NCBI GenBank assembly: GCA_963677595.1
Contig: OY782041.1
Span: 128,001 to 192,000, forward strand
Direction of reading: 5' to 3'
Source: Spirochaetia bacterium
Lineage (GTDB): Bacteria; Spirochaetota; Spirochaetia; CAKZLE01
DNA length: 64,000 nucleotides
Shown here: in pieces, positions 1,706 through 22,807 of the stretch
Layout of the letters: every line of letters begins with the position of its first letter
Numbering within the stretch: position 1 is the first letter of the stretch
Notes under the pieces: model-generated
Told to the model about the DNA's origin: nothing
What the model saw: the letters and a program-made list of their open reading frames with translations, nothing else
Databases searched by the model: none
Program-made: the position numbers and the translations under genes

Positions 1706-3145
1706 ATGACACATCAGGCGCTAATCGACCTAATAGGCATGATACAGGTCCAGAGAACCGAATCCCAAACCCTTGAACTTAAAGCAGCCCATATCGGTTG
1801 TCCCAAAAGACTCTATGACACCCTCTCCTCGTTCTCGAACCAGGATGGCGGCGGAATCCTGGTCTTCGGCATCAGCGAACAAGATTCATATGGGGTTGTG
1901 GGTGTATATGACCCCCAGGATCTCCAGAAAAAGGTCAACGAGCAGTGTAAACAGATGGTGCCGCCTGTGCGTCCAGTCTTCACTGTCGTTTCCTTTGGAG
2001 AAGAGATCGTGGTGTCGGCAGAAATCCCAGGAATAGACATCTCTGAAAGACCCTGTTATTACGGTGGGGTTGGAAAGACCAAGGGGTCATACATCAGGGT
2101 CGGTGAGTCCGATGAGCCAATGAGCGACTACGAAATCTACAGCTACGAAGCGTTCAGGAAGAAATATGAGGATGATATCAGGGTCAATGAGCGATCTGAT
2201 GAAAGTGTCCTTGACAGGGAAGCATTCACCCAGTATATCGAGAGGATCAAGCTCCAGTACCCGAAACTCTCCAGGCTGCCCGATGCCGACATCTATCGGC
2301 ATCTCAACCTGGTGGTCCAAGGGAAGCTGACCCTGGTATGCACGCTCCTGTTTTCTCTCTACCCCCAGATGTTCTATCCGCAATACACGATCAACGCCAT
2401 GGTGGTTTTCGGGAATGAGCGGGGCATCGCTGCTGAGGATGGTGCAAGGTTTCTTGATAACAGACGCATTGAGGGGACGATCCAGGACATGTTGGCCCAA
2501 AGCCTCAACTTCCTTCAGAAGAATATGAAGGTGAAGACCATCATAGACAAAGAGAGCGGGAAACGGAATGACAAACCAGAGTATCCTGTCATAGCATTAC
2601 GGGAAGCCCTGTTGAATGCCCTTATCCACCGCGATTACAGTATCCACACCCAGGGGATGCCGATCGAAGTGATCATGTACAGCAACAGAATAGAGATACG
2701 GAATCCTGGAGGGTTGTATGGTCGGTTGACAGTCGATGACCTCGGGAGGGTCCAGCCTGATGCAAGGAACCCGGTACTCGCCAGAGCTCTGGAGTTCCTG
2801 GGTATTACCGAAAACAGATACTCAGGCATACCAACAATGCGGCATGAAAGCAAGGAGGCGGGGTTACGGGAGCCAGAGTTCAAGAATTCAAGGCAAGAAT
2901 TCCTTGTCACGTTCTATAATGCAAGACTTGAAGCCTCTCCTACAGAAAGTTCTGACCAGGAGAGGAAGATCCTTGAATTCTGCCGTCAGCCGAAGTCCCG
3001 CGATGAGATAGCACATTTTCTAGGGTTCAAGTCTACCCGCTGGGCAATGAGTGGATTTGTATCCCCCCTCCTGAAGGCGGGTCGACTCAGGATGACATTG
3101 CCTGATACCCCGAAGTCAAAGAACCAGAAATACTATACGGCCTGA
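1706..3145 (+). CDS. Schlafen/AlbA_2 domain + RecG-C-like ATPase domain + winged HTH protein
   Basis: N-terminal ESQTLELK and SFSNxxGGGxLVFGI; ALREALLNALIHRDY, NPGG, RNPVLA and ENRYSGI; C-terminal PKSKNQKY; AT-rich upstream region with AAGGGAG SD. Confidence 0.85.
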   Translation: MTHQALIDLIGMIQVQRTESQTLELKAAHIGCPKRLYDTLSSFSNQDGGGILVFGISEQDSYGVVGVYDPQDLQKKVNEQCKQMVPPVRPVFTVVSFGEEIVVSAEIPGIDISERPCYYGGVGKTKGSYIRVGESDEPMSDYEIYSYEAFRKKYEDDIRVNERSDESVLDREAFTQYIERIKLQYPKLSRLPDADIYRHLNLVVQGKLTLVCTLLFSLYPQMFYPQYTINAMVVFGNERGIAAEDGARFLDNRRIEGTIQDMLAQSLNFLQKNMKVKTIIDKESGKRNDKPEYPVIALREALLNALIHRDYSIHTQGMPIEVIMYSNRIEIRNPGGLYGRLTVDDLGRVQPDARNPVLARALEFLGITENRYSGIPTMRHESKEAGLREPEFKNSRQEFLVTFYNARLEASPTESSDQERKILEFCRQPKSRDEIAHFLGFKSTRWAMSGFVSPLLKAGRLRMTLPDTPKSKNQKYYTA

Positions 3146-3171
3146 GACGATACGCAGAAGTTCCAGCAACT

Positions 3172-4524
3172 TCACCTGCCCTTTCTTCTCTTTCCTGAGA
3201 CAGCAGGCTTCTTCCCTCCCCTCAGCAGTACCCCAATGACCAGGATGAGCAGCGTGAGGATCACGAAGGGAATGATCATAGCCTTCTGCACCGCCCCGTA
3301 GATGATGTACCCCGACCCGACGGCTGCCAGTGCCGGCATGATGAAGCGGACGAGGATTGACTCATCGGCGAAGGTCCTCATGACCCAGAGGTAGAGGGAG
3401 AGGTAGATCAGGTAGAGGAAGGCGATAGGCAGCTCCGATATATCCATGAAGCCGCCCCACCAGCCGTTGAAGCTTCCGTACCAGACGGTGAGCCAGGCTG
3501 CTGACACGACCAGTCCGAGGAGCCCGGAGTTGACGGTACTGTTGGTCCTGCCGCTTATATGCCGGAAGAAGCCCGGAGCCGGGCCAAGGTCCCTGACGGA
3601 GATGGAGTACATCCCCCGTACCGAGCCCATGACCAGCCCGTTCAGCGTCCCCAGGCAGGAGACGATGACGAAGAGGGTCAGGACCGTACCGGCCAGGTCT
3701 CCGAAGACGAGGGAGATGACCTGGACCGGGGCGGCATCCCCGGCTGCGATGACCTGGGAGTTCGTCAGCACCCCCGCGATCCCGATGTAGTAGAGCATAT
3801 AGGCAGCGACGACCACGACCGCACCGGCGAGGAGCGCCTTGGGAAGGGTCTTCCTGGCATCCTTGAGTTCCGCATTGATCGAAGTCGCAATGATCCAGCC
3901 CTCATAGGCGAAGATCGTGGAGAGGGTCGCCACGGCGAGCCCCCCTGAGGTTGAGATATTCTCTGCGCTGCTGATGAAGCTGTTCACAGTCTGCCCGCTC
4001 GACAGCCCCCGGATCAGGCCGATGATCACGACCAATGCGATCGGGATGAGCTTGATCATGGCAGTGGAGACCTGCCACCTGCCGGCAAGTACCGGCGAGA
4101 GGAGGTTCAGGAGAAAGAACAGTGCCAGGTAGATGAAGGCGACCAGCCACAACCCTGACTGCAGGCCCAACAGCCCGACGGTATAGTTCGCCGAGACCCA
4201 GGCCAGCACGGCACAGAGGGTCGGGTAATAGACCATGGTCATGAACCAGCCCACGATATAGCCGCCGGATACCCCATAGGCCTCCTCGAAATAGTCGACG
4301 AGGCCGTTCACCTTCTCGTAGCGGGTCGCGATCTTGGAGAAGACATAGGAGGTGATAACCATGATCCCCCCGCCGATGAGCCATGCCGTGAGGGCTACCG
4401 GCAGGGAACCCCCTGACGCGATGAGCACATCGTCAGCCTTGAAGAAGACCCCTGACCCGATAACGATCCCGACCACCATGGCGGCAGCCGTCCAGAACCC
4501 GTATTTCTTCTCTAATCGTTCCAT
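3172..4524 (-). CDS. APC-family amino acid permease
   Basis: VVGIVIGSGVF and FAYEGW motifs, about 12 hydrophobic segments; AGGAG SD before ATG at 4524. Confidence 0.9.
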   Translation of the reverse strand: MERLEKKYGFWTAAAMVVGIVIGSGVFFKADDVLIASGGSLPVALTAWLIGGGIMVITSYVFSKIATRYEKVNGLVDYFEEAYGVSGGYIVGWFMTMVYYPTLCAVLAWVSANYTVGLLGLQSGLWLVAFIYLALFFLLNLLSPVLAGRWQVSTAMIKLIPIALVVIIGLIRGLSSGQTVNSFISSAENISTSGGLAVATLSTIFAYEGWIIATSINAELKDARKTLPKALLAGAVVVVAAYMLYYIGIAGVLTNSQVIAAGDAAPVQVISLVFGDLAGTVLTLFVIVSCLGTLNGLVMGSVRGMYSISVRDLGPAPGFFRHISGRTNSTVNSGLLGLVVSAAWLTVWYGSFNGWWGGFMDISELPIAFLYLIYLSLYLWVMRTFADESILVRFIMPALAAVGSGYIIYGAVQKAMIIPFVILTLLILVIGVLLRGGKKPAVSGKRRKGR

Positions 4525-15304: not shown

Positions 15305-16690
15305 ATGCAGAGACGGATTGCACAGCTGGTGAATGCGGACCCGACCGACGAGACGTTGGAAGTCGAGGGCTGGGTGCGAACGAAACGTGATTCAAAGAAC
15401 TTCTGTTTCTTCGAACTGAACGACGGATCCTGCCTGAAGAACCTTCAGGTGATCCTTGACAAGACTACCTCAGAACTCTCCGAAGTCATAACCCATATTA
15501 CGACGGGGGCGAGCGTCACCTTCTCCGGGAGACTCGTGGAATCCCCGGGGAAAAACCAGAAAGTCGAGCTACAGGCTTCCGGGGTGGTCCTCCACGGAGA
15601 AGCCCCCGCGGATACCTACCCCCTGCAGAAGAAGCGGCACTCACTCGAGTTCCTTAGGGAGATCGCCCACCTGCGGCCGAGAACCAACACGATCAGCGCC
15701 GTTGCCCGGGTACGGAATGCCTTGAGCTATGCGATACACTCCTACTTCCAGGAGCAGGGGTTCATCTATGTCCATACCCCGATCATCTCCGCCTCCGACT
15801 GCGAGGGCGCAGGCGAGATGTTCCAGGTGACCACCCTTCCCCTGGATGGGATCCCCATAGAGGACGGGCTCATCGACTACTCCAAAGACTTCTTCGGGAA
15901 ACCGGCGAACCTCACGGTGAGCGGCCAGCTGGAAGCCGAGATCTACGCACTCGCGATGAAGAACGTCTACACCTTCGGACCTACCTTCCGTGCCGAGAAC
16001 TCGAACACTGCCCGTCACCTTGCCGAGTTCTGGATGATCGAGCCGGAGATGGCATTCTGCACCCTCGAAGGAGACATGGCTGTGGCTGAGGAGTTCCTCA
16101 AGTACATCTTCACCTATGTGCTCGACCATTGTGCCGAGGATATGGCGTTCTTCAACCAGTGGGTACAGAAGGGAGTCGCAGACTCGCTTCGAGAGGTGAT
16201 CGAGAAGCCGTTCGTCCACCTGACCTATACTGATGCGGTGAAGGAGCTGGAAGCAGCAAAAAAGGATTTCGAGTTCCCGATCTCCTGGGGGGCGGACCTC
16301 CAGTCGGAACATGAGAAGTACCTCACCGAGGAGGTCTGCAAGGCTCCTGTCATCGTGACCGACTACCCGAAGGAGATCAAGGCTTTCTACATGAAGCTCA
16401 ATGACGATGGGAAGACCGTACGTGCCATGGACGTCCTCGTACCGCGACTCGGTGAGATCATCGGGGGTAGTGAACGAGAGGCACGCTACGATGTGCTCCT
16501 GCAGCGCCTCGACGAGCTCGGGCTCGAGAAGAAGGACTACTGGTGGTACCTGGACCTGCGAAGGTACGGGTCGGTCCCGCATGCAGGCTTCGGGCTGGGC
16601 TTTGACCGGGTAGTCCAGTACGTCACCGGCATGCAGAACATCAGGGATGTCATCCCCTTCCCGAGGACTGTCCATAACGCTGAGTTCTAG
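15305..16690 (+). CDS. asnS: Asparagine--tRNA ligase
   Basis: [57 protein letters not shown]. Confidence 0.98.
16584..16690 (+). repeat. Copy 1 of a 107-bp direct repeat of the asnS 3' end (att-like)
   Basis: Matches 18933-19039 at 103 of 107 positions. Confidence 0.95.
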
Positions 16691-17134
16691 CATTGGACCT
16701 GCTGGCATAGCCCTGAAGGCGTGAGGTGCTCAGCTGGAACAGACTCTGGATCACAGTAATACGGTCATTGCAGATCTGCCCGCCCGTCTGGATATCGTTG
16801 ACCGGCGGGCTGCCGCAAAGGCTCTATGAGCCTTTGCCTCTCCTAACGAGAGATTCTCCTCTCTACCTCCGATTGAAGAGCTTGAAGACTCCCAATGTAA
16901 TGAAGCCGTATCACAACCGCCCCCCCCAACCTGCGGGGTGCATAATGAGCGTACCTATACCTCAATGTTAATATTTTTGCAGGATACTTTTCACTTGAGA
17001 ATCAGAAACAATTTCGCTGCCTTTCGGAGCTACTTTTCGCTCTCTTTGGGAAGAACCTTCTTTCATAGAGGTTCTTAACAGTTTTATAGCTTTACTACTG
17101 CGTACGATAATATCACGAGAAAAGTAGTATGACT

Positions 17135-17385
17135 GTAGTTGAGAAGTCATAGATGCTATCCTATTCTTGACGGAGAATGGGAACCGGTGATCGTGTAATA
17201 CGTTTTTGTGATGGATGCTGGACTGCCAGACATACCTCAAGAGAAAAGATACACTGACCGGTCATCGAAGACTACTTGGAGACTTCCCGGGGAATTCTCC
17301 CCGGGAATGATCTCAATAATAAAAATGAAGGACATCTACGCACTTCCTGTCATAAAGCTTCCCAACTATCCGTTAATTTAATTTT
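17135..17385 (+). ncRNA. Candidate bridge RNA/seekRNA in the IS110 left non-coding end
   Basis: ~270-nt non-coding left end with hairpins (17159-17182; perfect 10-bp stem 17284-17307) and short segments matching the junctions; boundaries approximate. Confidence 0.6.
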
Positions 17386-17398
17386 TGAGGAGGCTGCC

Positions 17399-18568
17399 AT
17401 GATAGACAGACCTTTACGATTGACGGCAACCAGGATCATCGGCTTGGATCTTTCCAAGAAGACTCTGGTTGGGTGTATGCTGCTAGAAGAAGAAGGGTTC
17501 ATGAAGAACCACTTCTTCGACGAGAAGATGAATGCTCAAGGACGTCAGCGACTCGCTGAACGGTTCAAAGCAGGAGATGCGATCTTCATGGAGGGAGGGA
17601 CCTCTTCCTTCAACCTCGCACGGTATCTGCTGAAGCACACCGAAGCAGACGTGTATGTACTCAACCCTATGAAACTGCATATCATCTTCGAGTCGATCTG
17701 CAAGTCAGATCGGCAAGATGCTGCAAAATTGGCTAAGTATGCACGGGATGCCCACCCTGAGAACTGGGTACTGGTTCCCATCCCGACTGAACAGGAATCT
17801 GCTGAGCGCTCAGTAGTCAAGCTTCACATCGCCTATTCTCAGTATCGTACGAAGGTCATCAACAAGCTTCATGCGGTATTCACAGGAATGGGGTTCCCTG
17901 ACCTGAAGAAATCGGATCTGAAGGATCCTCGCAAGCGACGGGACTGGGTGGAGACCCTGCTCGCCGAGGAGATAGCTCTATTCAGTGCAGGGCTCCTGCT
18001 CGAAGAGCTTGAATCATTGGAGTCGCAGATGGAACGTATTCATGAGAAGCTCAAGGAGATCATTCTCGCTCACCCACGAGAAGCCATAGCATGGCTCTCG
18101 ATCCCTGGTATCGGAGACATCACGGCTGTAACGCTCATTGCCTTCCTCGGTAATGGAGACCGATTCTCTTCTGCTAACCAACTGAGGAACTATATCGGTC
18201 TCATCCCGAAGAAGGATCAATCCGGGACGGTCGATAAGCAGCTTGGGGTCTCTCGTCACGGGTGTATGCCGATCAGGAGGCACATCATGCAGGGAGCTTG
18301 GGGTGTCAAAAAGTTCAGACATGATTGTTCTCTTACTCGGTACTGGCAGCGTCTTGAAAGCCGACGGAAGCTTGGTCAGAAAGCATCAGTTGCCATTGCT
18401 AATAAGATGCTCTCTATCGGATTCGCCCTGCTGAAGAACGGTGACATCTATCGGATGCCTGACGGGGAACAGTATCTGTTGAAGAAGCTGCATTACTATA
18501 AACTTGAAGCTCTCGTCGGAACCCGATCCTGGCAGATTAATTCCGATAAGAGCTCCATAACCAGCTAA
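17399..18568 (+). CDS. IS110-family transposase/recombinase
   Basis: DEDD RuvC-like residues (IGLDLSK, FMEGG, KSDRQDA), SIPGIG, GLIPKKDQSG (catalytic Ser), VAIANK; GAGGAGG SD. Confidence 0.95.
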   Translation: MIDRPLRLTATRIIGLDLSKKTLVGCMLLEEEGFMKNHFFDEKMNAQGRQRLAERFKAGDAIFMEGGTSSFNLARYLLKHTEADVYVLNPMKLHIIFESICKSDRQDAAKLAKYARDAHPENWVLVPIPTEQESAERSVVKLHIAYSQYRTKVINKLHAVFTGMGFPDLKKSDLKDPRKRRDWVETLLAEEIALFSAGLLLEELESLESQMERIHEKLKEIILAHPREAIAWLSIPGIGDITAVTLIAFLGNGDRFSSANQLRNYIGLIPKKDQSGTVDKQLGVSRHGCMPIRRHIMQGAWGVKKFRHDCSLTRYWQRLESRRKLGQKASVAIANKMLSIGFALLKNGDIYRMPDGEQYLLKKLHYYKLEALVGTRSWQINSDKSSITS

Positions 18569-18752
18569 AGCCTTCCTAACGGTTTTAGCCTATCACTAAC
18601 CACCTCCCCACGCAAGTCCTTATTCTTAAGGTCTCGGAGAATTGTGTCTATTTGAATTGCTAAAATTTTCTTGTTTATACCTCTTGACATCTACAGACAA
18701 ATAAATGATGTAGTTGCCATTGTTATACCTCCCATAAAAAGATCGTAATTAA

Positions 18753-18932: not shown

Positions 18933-19039
18933 CAGGCTTCGGGCTGGGCTTCGACCGTGTCGTCCAGTACGTCACCGGCATGCAGAACATCAGGGACGTC
19001 ATCCCCTTCCCGAGGACTGTCCATAACGCTGAGTTCTAG
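18933..19039 (+). repeat. Copy 2 of the asnS 3'-end repeat (displaced gene end)
   Basis: Encodes [34 protein letters not shown]; 4 differences from copy 1, all synonymous. Confidence 0.95.
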
Positions 19040-19061
19040 TAGACGGCGGAGTCCAGTAAAT

Positions 19062-19283
19062 ATAACGAGAGGACAGCATGGGTATCTGGTTCCTCCTCTT
19101 CCTCTGCTGCCATCCCCTTCTCCCCGGACTGTTCGACCAGCCCGGTATCAATGATCACCTGGCAGCATCAGCCGCCAGGTTCCTTATTCTTCTTACCACC
19201 TGTGGGAGGGAAGCAGGCATCTCCTTTACCTCCTGACACCTGCCGTCCTCCCGTTCATGGACTTTCTAACCATTCCTATCCTT
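19062..19283 (-). ncRNA. Conserved structured non-coding element downstream of LuxR-1 (copy 1 of 3)
   Basis: Three hairpins whose mismatches are G-U pairs on the minus strand; 12 GGA motifs. Confidence 0.55.
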
Positions 19284-19934
19284 CTAGAGGGTGGTCAGCC
19301 CCATACGCAGTGCGTACTTGGTGAGTCCTGCGATCGAGTGCACATCCAGCTTGGACTGGATCTTCTTCCGGTGGACATCTACCGTGCTCACCGAGATGTC
19401 CAACTTGAAGGATATCTCCTTCGAGGTCATGCCCCGACTGAGGAACTGCAGAACCTCCCGTTCTCGCCGGGTGAGCGGGACCGTCGGGAACCTCTGATTC
19501 CCTGCTTTGTAGATCCGTTCTTCCGCGACGTAGGACGGCAGATACACCGCTCCCTCGAACTGCGCCAGCAGCGCCTGCTCGAACTCCTTGAACGATGCCT
19601 TCTCGAAGAGGAATCCGTTGATTCCATGATCATGGTACATGTCGATCATCATCTCATGATGCTCCTCAATGAGGATCATCGTGCGGATCGCGCACCCGGA
19701 GATGGGGCCGTCCTCCTTCCCCAGCAGCTTAAGAAACTGCTTACATCGTGATGCGGTCTCGAGGAGCGCTGAGGATATGATGATGATGGCAGACTGTACA
19801 TTGAGCTGGCTTTCAGCCAATGCATCCAGATCTTCATAGTAGGCGACAACCTGGAATTCTCCAGATTCTTTGATGAGCCTGAACAGCCCTTCACTAAGCA
19901 GTGACCTGCTCTTTATAAAGATAATGTTTTTCAT
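19284..19934 (-). CDS. LuxR/NarL-family regulator with degenerate receiver domain (paralog 1)
   Basis: LTRREREVL...GMTSKEIS.KLDISVSTVDVHRKKIQSKL HTH; receiver-like N-terminus lacking the Asp residues. Confidence 0.9.
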   Translation of the reverse strand: MKNIIFIKSRSLLSEGLFRLIKESGEFQVVAYYEDLDALAESQLNVQSAIIIISSALLETASRCKQFLKLLGKEDGPISGCAIRTMILIEEHHEMMIDMYHDHGINGFLFEKASFKEFEQALLAQFEGAVYLPSYVAEERIYKAGNQRFPTVPLTRREREVLQFLSRGMTSKEISFKLDISVSTVDVHRKKIQSKLDVHSIAGLTKYALRMGLTTL

Positions 19935-20006
19935 ATTAGTATTAACCTTTTATTTGTTTGATTTGATTTAAAAATTCTGATCGAATCTTTGTTTTTTTAG
20001 GTTCAT

Positions 20007-20222
20007 CGGGAAAACAGCGGGTGTATCTTATTCCTCCTCATCCTATGCTGCCATCCCTTCCCTCCGAGCTGGTCGACCAGCCCGGTATCAATGATCACCC
20101 GGCGGCATCAGCCGCCAGGTCCCATATTCTTCTTGCCACCTGTGGGAGGGAGCAGGTATCTCCTTTACCTCCTGACACCTGCTGTCCTCCCGTTCATGGA
20201 TTTTCGAACAATTCCTATTCTT
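20007..20222 (-). ncRNA. Conserved structured non-coding element downstream of LuxR-2 (copy 2 of 3)
   Basis: Clear alignment to 19062-19283 with the stems preserved. Confidence 0.55.
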
Positions 20223-20876
20223 CTAGAGTGTGGCCAGTCCCATGCGCAGTGCGTACATGGTGAGTCCTGCGATCGAGTGAACATCCAGCCTGGACTGGAG
20301 CTTCTTCCGGCAGTTAATGATCGAGGCCTCCGAGAGGTTCAGCTTGGAACCAATCTCCCTCGAGGTCTTGCCCAGGCTGAGGAGCCGCAGCACCTCCTGT
20401 TCTCGCTCGGTGAGCGGGACCATCGGGAACCTCCGGGGTCCTGCTTTGTAGATCCGTTCTTCCGCGACGTAGGACGGTAGGTATACCGCTCCCTCGAACT
20501 GTGCCCGCAGCGCCTGCTCGAACTCCGTGAACGAGACCTTCTCGAAGAGGAATCCCTTGAATCCCTGGGCATGATACATGTCGATCATTACCTCATGCTG
20601 CTCCTTGATGAGGATCATCGTGCGGATCGAGCACCCGGTGATGGGGCTATCCTTCTTCCCCAGTATCTCAACATACTGCTCACAACGTGATACAGTATTG
20701 AGGATCCTTGAAGATATGATGATGTTGATCGGAGAGCGCACATTGTGCCGGCTTTCAGCGAATGCGTCCAGATCTTCATAGTGTGCGATCATCTGGAATT
20801 CTCCAGATGCTTCGAGGAGCCTGAGCAACCCATCACTGAGCAGTCCCCTGCTTTTTATTAAGATTATGTTTTTCAT
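20223..20876 (-). CDS. LuxR/NarL-family regulator with degenerate receiver domain (paralog 2)
   Basis: Paralog of the flanking genes; start MKNIILIKS at 20876 by alignment. Confidence 0.9.
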   Translation of the reverse strand: MKNIILIKSRGLLSDGLLRLLEASGEFQMIAHYEDLDAFAESRHNVRSPINIIISSRILNTVSRCEQYVEILGKKDSPITGCSIRTMILIKEQHEVMIDMYHAQGFKGFLFEKVSFTEFEQALRAQFEGAVYLPSYVAEERIYKAGPRRFPMVPLTEREQEVLRLLSLGKTSREIGSKLNLSEASIINCRKKLQSRLDVHSIAGLTMYALRMGLATL

Positions 20877-20985
20877 ACTGCTAGTAACCAAGTTTTTTTG
20901 TTGTATTTCCTTTTTTGTGTATCCATCAGGGAAACCCATTCCCCGGGGACTCCCTCCGGCTTCCACAGGTATGTGGCAGCCTTTC

Positions 20986-21206
20986 ATAACGGGAAGACAG
21001 CATGGGTATCTGGTTCCTCCTCGTCCCATGCTGCTATTCCCTTCTCTCCAGGCTGTTCGACCAGCCTGGTATCAATGATCACCTGGCGGCTTCAGCCGCC
21101 AGGTTCCGTATCCTGTTGCCGACTGTGGGAGGGAAGCAGGTATCTCTTTTACCTCCTGACACCTGCTGTCCTCCCGCTCGCGGACTTTCGAACAATTCCT
21201 TTTTCT
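20986..21206 (-). ncRNA. Conserved structured non-coding element downstream of LuxR-3 (copy 3 of 3)
   Basis: Aligns to copies 1 and 2; compensatory stem CCAGGCTG/CAGCCTGG. Confidence 0.55.
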
Positions 21207-21860
21207 CTAGAGTGAGGTCAGCCCCATGCGCAGTGCGTACTTGGTGAGTTCCGCAATCGTGTGCACGTCCAGCTTCGACTGGATCTTCTTCCGATGGACA
21301 TCGACCGTACTTACCGAGATGTCCAGCCTGGAAGATATCGTCCTTGAGGTCATGCCCTGGCTGAGGAACCGCAGTACCTCCTGTTCCCGCTGTGTGAGCG
21401 GGACCATCGGGAACCTCCGGGGCCCTGGTTTGTAGATCCGTTCTTCCGCGACATAAGACGGCAGATATACCGCTCCCTCGAACTGCGCCAGCAGCGCCTG
21501 CTCGAACTCCTTGAACGATGCCTTCTCAAAGAGGAACCCGTTGATTCCCTGTTCATGGTACATGTCGATCATCAACTCGTGATTCTCCTGGATCAGGATC
21601 ATCGTGCGGATAGAGCATCCGGCGAGGGGACCATCCTCCTTCTTCAGCATCTTGAGATACTGCTCACAACGTGATGCGGTATCGAGGATCGCTGAAGATA
21701 TGACGATGATCAGGGGAGAGCGCTCATTGTGCTGGGTTTCAGCCAACGAATCTAGATCTTCATGGTGTGCGACCATCTGGAATTCACCAGATGTCTGGAC
21801 TAGCTCAATTAGTCCCTCCGTTAGGAGTGACTTACTTTTAATTAATAAAAGTTTTTTCAT
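21207..21860 (-). CDS. LuxR/NarL-family regulator with degenerate receiver domain (paralog 3)
   Basis: LTQREQEVL...LDISVSTVDVHRKKIQSKL HTH. Confidence 0.9.
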   Translation of the reverse strand: MKKLLLIKSKSLLTEGLIELVQTSGEFQMVAHHEDLDSLAETQHNERSPLIIVISSAILDTASRCEQYLKMLKKEDGPLAGCSIRTMILIQENHELMIDMYHEQGINGFLFEKASFKEFEQALLAQFEGAVYLPSYVAEERIYKPGPRRFPMVPLTQREQEVLRFLSQGMTSRTISSRLDISVSTVDVHRKKIQSKLDVHTIAELTKYALRMGLTSL

Positions 21861-21922
21861 ACTACTTATAAACAGGTTTGAGGTGGATTTGATTTAAAAA
21901 AAAAGGGCAATTCTTTATTTTT

Positions 21923-22807
21923 TTATTTTTTTTTCGGATCCATCGGAATAAACCCTTCCCCGAGTACTTCCTGGGCACTGGTGATGATCATAAATGCGTC
22001 AGGATCTATCTTCCTCACGGTATTGGTCACCTGGGATATCTTCCTGTTCCGTACCACCATCATGATCATCCGCTTGTCATCGTTACGGTACATACCATGG
22101 GCATCCACGAAGGTTCCCCCATGACCCTGATCGAAGGTAAGGACTTTCTGCAGCTCCTCGTACCGGTCACTGATGATATAGGCCATCTTGGCGTAGTTCG
22201 CTCCGCTGGTCACCATATTGATGAACTGTCCTGTCGTGAAGAGGGTGATGACGGCGAAGAGTGCCTGTTCGATCGAGAACGAGAAGGCAGCTACCGCGAC
22301 GATCGCCCCATCCACGAGGTAGAGGGATGTCCCGAGCGGGAGCCTGCTGTAGTGGTTGATGACCTGCGCGATGATATCGGTCCCGCCGGTATTCGCCCCG
22401 CCCTTCATCGTGATTCCTATCCCCGCCCCGGTCAGGGTCCCGCCGAAGAGGGCAGCGAGCAGGATGTCCGTCCGGTCGCCCGTGGTGAGCAGGCCCTCAT
22501 AGCCGAGGATGTGTCCGAGGACGGTCACGGCAACGGACATCGCGATCGTCCCCCAGAGTGATTTGAGCCCGAACCGGTGGCCGAAGACCAGGATCCCGAG
22601 CCCGAAGATGGGTATGCTCAATGCGAGGATGACGATACCCGGGTCCCACCCGAACCAGTAGTAGGTGATGACCGACAGACCGCTCACCCCTCCCGCAGCT
22701 ATCTTGGCTGGGGCAAGGAACAGGACGAGGCCTGCAGCCGTGACGACCGACCCGATCGTGATCAGGATATAGTCACGCACCTTCCCGGCCAGTTCATCAC
22801 GCTTCAT
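21923..22807 (-). CDS. YitT-family membrane protein
   Basis: IAAGGVSG, GANTGGTDII, IDPDAFMII...EVLGEGF. Confidence 0.92.
   Translation of the reverse strand: MKRDELAGKVRDYILITIGSVVTAAGLVLFLAPAKIAAGGVSGLSVITYYWFGWDPGIVILALSIPIFGLGILVFGHRFGLKSLWGTIAMSVAVTVLGHILGYEGLLTTGDRTDILLAALFGGTLTGAGIGITMKGGANTGGTDIIAQVINHYSRLPLGTSLYLVDGAIVAVAAFSFSIEQALFAVITLFTTGQFINMVTSGANYAKMAYIISDRYEELQKVLTFDQGHGGTFVDAHGMYRNDDKRMIMMVVRNRKISQVTNTVRKIDPDAFMIITSAQEVLGEGFIPMDPKKK

Follow-up and report, generated by a model that had tools for sequence, protein, structure and literature searches.

The mechanism by which bridge RNAs guide IS110-family recombinases has been known since 2024, and there is a published precedent for each single feature described below. 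Durrant 2024 (PMC11208160) reports that the donor-binding bases of many IS1111 orthologs lie in a multi-loop, and gives a range of 7–17 bp for the IS1111 subterminal repeat, within which the 16 bp of the element described here fall. Exceptions with an upstream RNA, such as ISMtsp17, have been reported for IS1111 (PMC11187229), a promoter of the kind predicted here at the circle junction has been described for IS621 (PMC13626964), and 86 bridge-RNA models have been built, many of them unlike IS621 (bioRxiv 2026.10.21.760802). In titles and abstract openings, including those of papers naming ISLin1, we found no guide RNA for the branch considered here; published figures, Supplementary Table 5 of Durrant and the bioRxiv supplements may already show its layout.

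The window, i.e. the whole stretch of 64,000 nucleotides that was analysed, contains an intact IS110-family element of 1,584 bp, and positions 17135–17385 form part of its left non-coding end. This end very likely (probability of about 0.88) encodes a bridge RNA with guides in the order right target (RTG), left target (LTG), right donor (RDG) and left donor (LDG). The ends and core, the recombinase motifs, a covarying fold and the covariation of target guides with insertion sites were all established by sequence comparison, and the candidate bridge RNA proposed in the initial annotation is well supported. The locus is real and, on these comparisons, well supported as a bridge-RNA locus, with a guide map that is corrected here (Table 1).

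The recombinase exceeds the cut-off for PF01548 and PF02371, and scores 200 bits, against a cut-off of 140, for NF033542 (IS110-family RNA-guided transposase). It has the DEDD RuvC-like domain and the serine-containing Tnp domain that characterise the IS110 family in the broad sense, and the putative catalytic role of its D/E/D/D/S motif residues is carried over from IS621 (PMC11208158). The best match to a named protein was ISLin1 (157 bits; the next match scored 83). In a midpoint-rooted tree of 23 rows with few references, only two of them named IS1111 members, the recombinase clade was sister to ISLin1 (98/97) and grouped with IS5075, ISShdy1 and ISHvo9 on the IS1111 side of a branch with support of 94/94. 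The recombinase nevertheless fell outside the tight IS1111 cluster (100/100), and it is 389 aa long, versus 330–350 aa in IS1111.

The 4.3-Mb genome carries five full copies of the element, the window copy (hereafter c0) and four sisters elsewhere (c1–c4), together with one truncated left end. No differences separate c1 from c4 or c2 from c3 along the entire element, and c0 differs from each of these four at 57 positions. The flanks of the five copies part ways at a common A-run, consistent with insertion at a short common core and with no longer duplication of the target. One contig of sequencing run X2, which comes from a relative of about 88% similarity, corresponds to the empty allele and lacks exactly 1582 nt, that is, the element minus one AA core. 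Run X1 spans both flanks of the c0 site, but its interior is of the sister type only, and the assembly may have collapsed the variant. No RNA run was among the sequencing runs listed as containing the element, a result that speaks neither for nor against transcription. No circle-junction joint was present in the contigs of three sequencing runs, contigs being liable to lose rare forms, and the search of viral contigs with the element pattern returned zero matches. The element was found in none of five other genomes of its own family and in one of 400 others in the phylum sample. The 16-bp subterminal repeats change on both sides in two orthologs (L001 and L016), and thus covary between the two ends. 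Hexamers resembling −35 and −10 elements, 17 bp apart across the would-be circle junction, are predicted in 12/12 elements.

Several features of the surroundings and of related copies were recorded. The 3′-terminal 107 nt of asnS occur twice (window 16584–16690 and 18933–19039, 103/107 identical), on either side of 2.2 kb containing the IS, apparently as a relic of an element that had integrated at the 3′ end of this gene. Three tandem units of about 0.94 kb (window ~19060–21930), 80–83% identical, each contain a gene for a LuxR-type regulator on the minus strand. The genome also harbours a further, distant IS110 element (L010, protein 45% identical), into the right end of which a 383-aa transposase-like ORF (2656–3807), presumably IS1595-like, has been inserted; the true right end of this copy lies about 1.35 kb downstream of its stop codon.

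Table 1. Positions of the element, its predicted bridge RNA and the adjoining host DNA in the window.
Feature	Position	Strand	Basis or remark
Left target arm, host DNA, 5 nt	17117–17121	+	Flank divergence among five copies; run X2 empty allele
AA crossover core, left copy	17122–17123	+	Third shared A makes exact edge ambiguous by 1 nt
Left-end donor arm, 7 nt	17124–17130	+	Holds predicted −10 hexamer TAGTAT (17125–17130) of circle-junction promoter
Left subterminal inverted repeat, 16 bp	17131–17146	+	12/16 versus right one; 10–15/16 in 12 elements
Predicted bridge RNA, ~210 nt	17137–17346	+	Both ends predicted
Basal stem P1, 5′ strand	17143–17157	+	Partner 17331–17346
Hairpin P2, GACG loop	17159–17182	+	First hairpin of initial annotation; same loop in ISLin1
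Target-arm closing stems, 5′ strand	17185–17197	+	Partners 17250–53 and 17259–67 (latter includes TCAT, 17262–65)
Predicted RTG, 9 nt	17199–17207	+	Complementary to top strand of core + right target arm
Inner stem-loop P4 of target arm	17210–17238	+	CAGACA (17227–32) within 3′ strand
Predicted LTG, 7 nt	17241–17247	+	Identical to left arm + core
Possible handshake bases	17248–49	+	Just 3′ of LTG
Predicted RDG, 9 nt	17269–17277	+	Complementary to core + left-end arm, 8/9
Hairpin P5	17279–17314	+	Includes second hairpin of initial annotation (17284–17307); double-sided change in 9/14 pairs
Predicted LDG, 7 nt	17317–17323	+	Equals right-end arm + core, 6/7
Basal stem P1, 3′ strand	17331–17346	+	Includes 17331–39 of initial annotation
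IS110-family recombinase, 389 aa, intact	17399–18568	+	Motif residues D17, E65, D104, D107, S275
Right subterminal inverted repeat	18683–18698	+	Holds predicted −35 hexamer TTGACA (18684–18689)
Right-end donor arm, 5 nt, and right AA core copy	18699–18705	+	Five-copy comparison
Right target arm, host DNA, 7 nt	18706–18712	+	Five-copy comparison, empty allele, guide covariation

The fold of 17135–17345 was better than that of 200/200 shuffled sequences (z −5.7). Orthologs were obtained from four genome loci and 11 metagenome loci, plus eight of 258 genomes, and were labelled mostly Sphaerochaetaceae. RNAalifold, applied to 16 sequences, recovered the 5′ hairpin, the target arm and the 3′ hairpin; the basal stem P1 was our addition to this model. 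For P1, pairing with the sequence's own partner had a mean of −10.0 kcal/mol, versus −7.0 for swapped partners (0/200000 permutations, 14 sequences). Four of its eight inner pairs displayed double-sided change, and its outer 5-bp part was the weakest section (76% paired). For the full model, based on a 12-sequence alignment, 93.1% of 728 cells were paired and 20 of the 61 pairs had double-sided change; none of 500 shuffles scored as high and slid controls were 37–49% paired, but these controls are generous, because the structure was derived from the same sequences. The two hairpins identified in the initial annotation (17159–17182 and 17284–17307) covary across the 12 aligned sequences; the first is 100% paired, and the 17279–17314 arm that contains the second is 91% paired. 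The element end therefore contains a conserved structured RNA region of the kind expected for a bridge RNA, and Rfam gave no match in the window at gathering thresholds. P1 is predicted to close a four-way junction, the single strands of which would hold the donor guides and from which the target arm would branch. For this reason, the earlier suggestion of nested guides is right topologically, but in linear order the guides are serial (RTG, LTG, RDG, LDG) and not interleaved. In the minimum free energy structure of the single sequence, the two target guides are base-paired to one another, and holding all guides open costs 3.2 kcal/mol. A separately closed, IS621-like donor loop (TCAT with 17325–28) was also considered, but both RNAalifold and compensatory changes pair TCAT with 17187–90; the loop pairing may occur in an alternative conformer.

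All nine motif stretches quoted in the initial annotation are present at their positions. The annotation itself cautioned that the matches are short and may in part be due to chance, and as bare sequence they are weak: no exact match between the region and 70 nt spanning the two junctions exceeds 9 nt, a length reached in 112/1000 dinucleotide shuffles, and TCAT, AATAAA and CAGACA occurred in 2957, 599 and 294 of 3000 shuffles, respectively. Single matches being weak, the guide question required comparative tests, and the check proposed there, a comparison of ortholog non-coding ends with their targets for covariation, was therefore run. Redundancies were removed before counting (L012/L024, equal to L002; L018/L019, at the L017 site; L022/L023, equal to L001/L003; and L037=L038), partial ends (L004, L021, L025 and L030–L034) were left out of the guide tests, and loci without a right flank (L013, L014, L020, L027 and L029) entered the left-guide test only. 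An unbiased scan, supplied with no guide positions and covering 229 windows in eight modes (four pairing modes and four distal-flank controls), ranked 17199 at the top (z 5.13, versus ≤3.59 for the four controls). This position is the start of the RTG, a guide absent from the initial annotation. The LTG was first within its mode, with a z of only 2.7, a value within the range of the controls, since an A-rich guide is common to most of the close orthologs. At a fixed register, however, the match of the LTG to its own site was 4.33/5, versus 2.98 (14/362880 permutations of nine distinct guide groups). The segment 17241–48, initially read as left flank plus core, thus stands as the LTG (17241–47) and covaries with the left target.

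The corresponding permutation counts for the RTG were 5297/362880 at a fixed register and 2/362880 when the best fit among four registers was taken, these offsets having been picked after inspection of the data; all these counts overstate significance, because the orthologs are related. The register of the RTG is loose: six of the 13 close sites fitted best 1–2 nt off, convincingly only for c3 and L011 (6/7), and at the fixed register L003 and L015 had no Watson–Crick pairs and L026 was at background level (3/7). Loose fits of the right arm could reflect drift after insertion, action in trans of the RNA of another isoform, or half-match insertion, as described in bioRxiv 2026.08.31.748434. Two target guides covarying with both target strands, as in a bridge RNA, were nonetheless found, the right one being loose in register. 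The L011 and L015 insertions lie at hairpins just downstream of seemingly the same gene, and the right flank of c3 is also a hairpin; all three targets are possibly terminator-like.

Within the RNA, c0 has nine private positions relative to its four sisters, all of which lie in the target guides (17200–05 and 17241–44). The c0 guides matched their own site at 11/14 positions and the sister sites at 4–6, whereas the sister guides matched the c1, c2 and c4 sites at 11–12 and the c0 site at 5; at the c3 site they scored 6, but shifting the register by 1 nt gave 6/7 for the right arm. Judged by these sequences, c0 is a case of natural retargeting, in which the target guides have changed to fit its own insertion site. 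Over the element as a whole, differences between c0 and its sisters are clustered at window 18085–18091 and 18304–18322, and 19 of 42 private sites are common to ortholog L017; the clustering suggests recombination among isoforms. The truncated left end (L059, G000:C1:253791-253963) represents a third isoform, with target guides of its own, and ends inside hairpin P5. Its left-end arm is altered and its target arm is whole; this target arm could act in trans.

Two of the donor guides initially proposed were retained. ACTACTT (17271–77) falls within the RDG, which, for all four donor types compared (4/4), matches the left end of its own element better than those of the others. AATAAA (17318–23), read as a right-end guide, holds more weakly within the LDG, which matches at 6/7 and is conserved, with almost no variation in the close set; the equivalent match in ISLin1 has different letters. 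Among 20 elements, the first handshake base agreed with the left end in 16 and missed it in four, which did not establish a conserved handshake rule.

The steps by which such an element would move are modelled on work on IS621 and IS1111 (PMC11208160, PMC11208158). Circularisation would join the right-end −35 and left-end −10 hexamers at a spacing of 17 bp, creating a promoter, and the recombinase would assemble with the RNA transcribed from this junction. Base pairing with the target arm would then engage the two strands of the 14-bp site (5 + AA + 7). The donor guides, located in the four-way junction, would recognise in the same way the 14 bp of the circle junction that lie between the subterminal repeats, and insertion would follow from exchange of strands at the core. 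On this model, the predicted bridge RNA would be expressed, bound by the recombinase and programmable.

A shorter active species has also to be weighed, namely a seekRNA consisting of the target arm alone (~17185–17267, ~83 nt) and cut from a longer transcript; the protein would then recognise the ends, mainly through their long subterminal repeats, leaving a secondary role to the donor guides. This possibility is compatible with a four-guide bridge RNA as far as the target guides are concerned. The IS1111 and ISEc21 seekRNAs of 70–100 nt are reported to be the abundant form and to suffice for movement (PMC11187229), and a target-loop-only form is given as 90% of CazIS110-1 RNA (bioRxiv 2025.10.25.684509); the covariation of the 16-bp repeats between the two ends and the imperfect donor guides of L026, L027 and L028 point in the same direction. 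However, the basal stem enclosing the donor guides covaries, the RDG tracks its own end in the four donor types and, according to the same preprint, excision and integration of CazIS110-1 required the full-length RNA. We consider the short species unlikely to be the principal one.

The remaining explanations attribute less to the RNA, or distribute its guides differently. If the stretch were only a structured leader or a DNA end motif, flank matches would be due to chance or to a preference for A-rich insertion sites; individual matches are indeed short, many left arms are A-runs, and the sister guides match 619 genome sites at 11/14 or more. Guide changes nevertheless follow flank changes both within one genome and across genomes, and the same tracking is observed in the ISLin1 variant L036, the changed left guide of which fits its own flank at 7/7, rendering this explanation highly improbable. 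The map of the initial annotation, with interleaved or nested guides, took TCAT (17262–65) for the right-target guide and CAGACA (17227–32) and 17331–39 for donor guides. These matches are present in c0, and the exact 9-mer was found in only 4/3000 shuffles, yet TCAT is constant in 12/12 elements though right flanks vary, matching the flank only in c0; CAGACA forms the 3′ side of the inner stem within the target arm; and 17331–39, with a right-end match of 9/9 here, falls to 3–8/9 in eight ortholog loci and covaries with 17150–57. All three segments lie in stems supported across 12 sequences, and this distribution of guides is scarcely credible.

The four-guide bridge RNA proposed here would add a scaffold from a branch far from IS621, with all four predicted guides mapped. 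The two isoforms resident in one genome, which differ at nine guide positions and fit different sites, provide a natural pair for studies of programmability and register tolerance. ISLin1 (Leptospira; assigned by ISfinder to the IS110 family; loci L035–L038) resembles the element in its upstream non-coding end (247 nt), GACG hairpin, right-before-left guide order and similar junction hexamers, but differs in protein sequence (~28% identity), in its GA core and in its weak subterminal repeat (7/16 at the same register). The RNA model built from the element matched ISLin1 weakly (E ~0.001–0.005, a rough value) and had no match at E<0.05 in 11 reference loci besides ISLin1, a result that says little, because the model was built from close sequences. 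At L035, ISLin1 is present as tandem copies, its target being provided by the short repeated sequence in which they are embedded.

IS621 and ISCro4, as described in PMC11208160 and PMC11208158 (PDB 8wt6, 9t56), share with the element an RNA located upstream, in the left end, the succession of 5′ hairpin, target guides and donor guides, a 14-bp target and donor, a 2-nt core, and the position of the longer guide 5′ in each pair. Protein similarity to IS621 reaches only E ~1e-13. The 5′ guide of IS621 pairs with the bottom strand (PMC11208160), whereas that of the element pairs with the top strand, and IS621 is reported to have simple internal loops and a 2–3-bp repeat, in contrast to the predicted four-way junction and 16-bp repeat found here. 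The natural redirection reported for ISEc21 and ISMch6 (PMC11187229) likewise involves guide changes fitting a new target and an upstream RNA, but the guide order is opposite and the redirected relatives have proteins 72% identical, whereas the variants considered here, at ~97% identity, occur together in a single genome.

When the site is viewed from the bottom strand, its layout is 7+2+5, and the 9-nt guide precedes the 7-nt one in the RNA. IS621 has the same dimensions, so that the cassette resembles that of IS621 with the DNA substrates inverted. A plain flipped IS621 is not the whole story, because the 7-nt guide is the stricter one here, whereas the 9-nt guide provides the main match in IS621. 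We tentatively suggest, as a speculation that may well prove wrong, that the ISLin1-related branch preserves an intermediate stage in the separation of IS110 and IS1111: the element ends would first have been inverted with respect to the RNA–recombinase cassette, and only later would the RNA have shifted to a downstream position. RNA position would in that case be a trait separate from guide order, long repeats and multiloop, which together would form a single trait, and the recombinase would first cut the opposite strand relative to its gene. The long target guide would tolerate register slips of 1–2 nt, with the short arm fixing the crossover, and a few guide changes would suffice to yield co-resident isoforms with new targets.

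The IS1111 elements with seekRNAs (ISEc11, ISKpn4, ISPa11 and ISPst6), as presented by Siddiquee 2024 (PMC11187229), have in common with the element a top-strand complement 5′ of a bottom-strand match, long subterminal repeats, the GL-P----SG motif and a junction promoter, which is predicted here. They differ in that their RNA lies downstream of the transposase, whereas that of the element is upstream, where the non-coding end measures 275 nt, versus 137 nt downstream. The markers of the IS110 group (IS621/ISEc21 type), a bottom-strand guide 5′ of the top-strand guide and a short or absent subterminal repeat, are lacking. With its IS1111-type guide order, repeats and multiloop combined with an upstream RNA, the element would thus work like an IS1111-type bridge system that departs from one IS1111 marker and from two IS110-group markers, suggesting that guide order and RNA position, which serve to distinguish the two groups, can be uncoupled.
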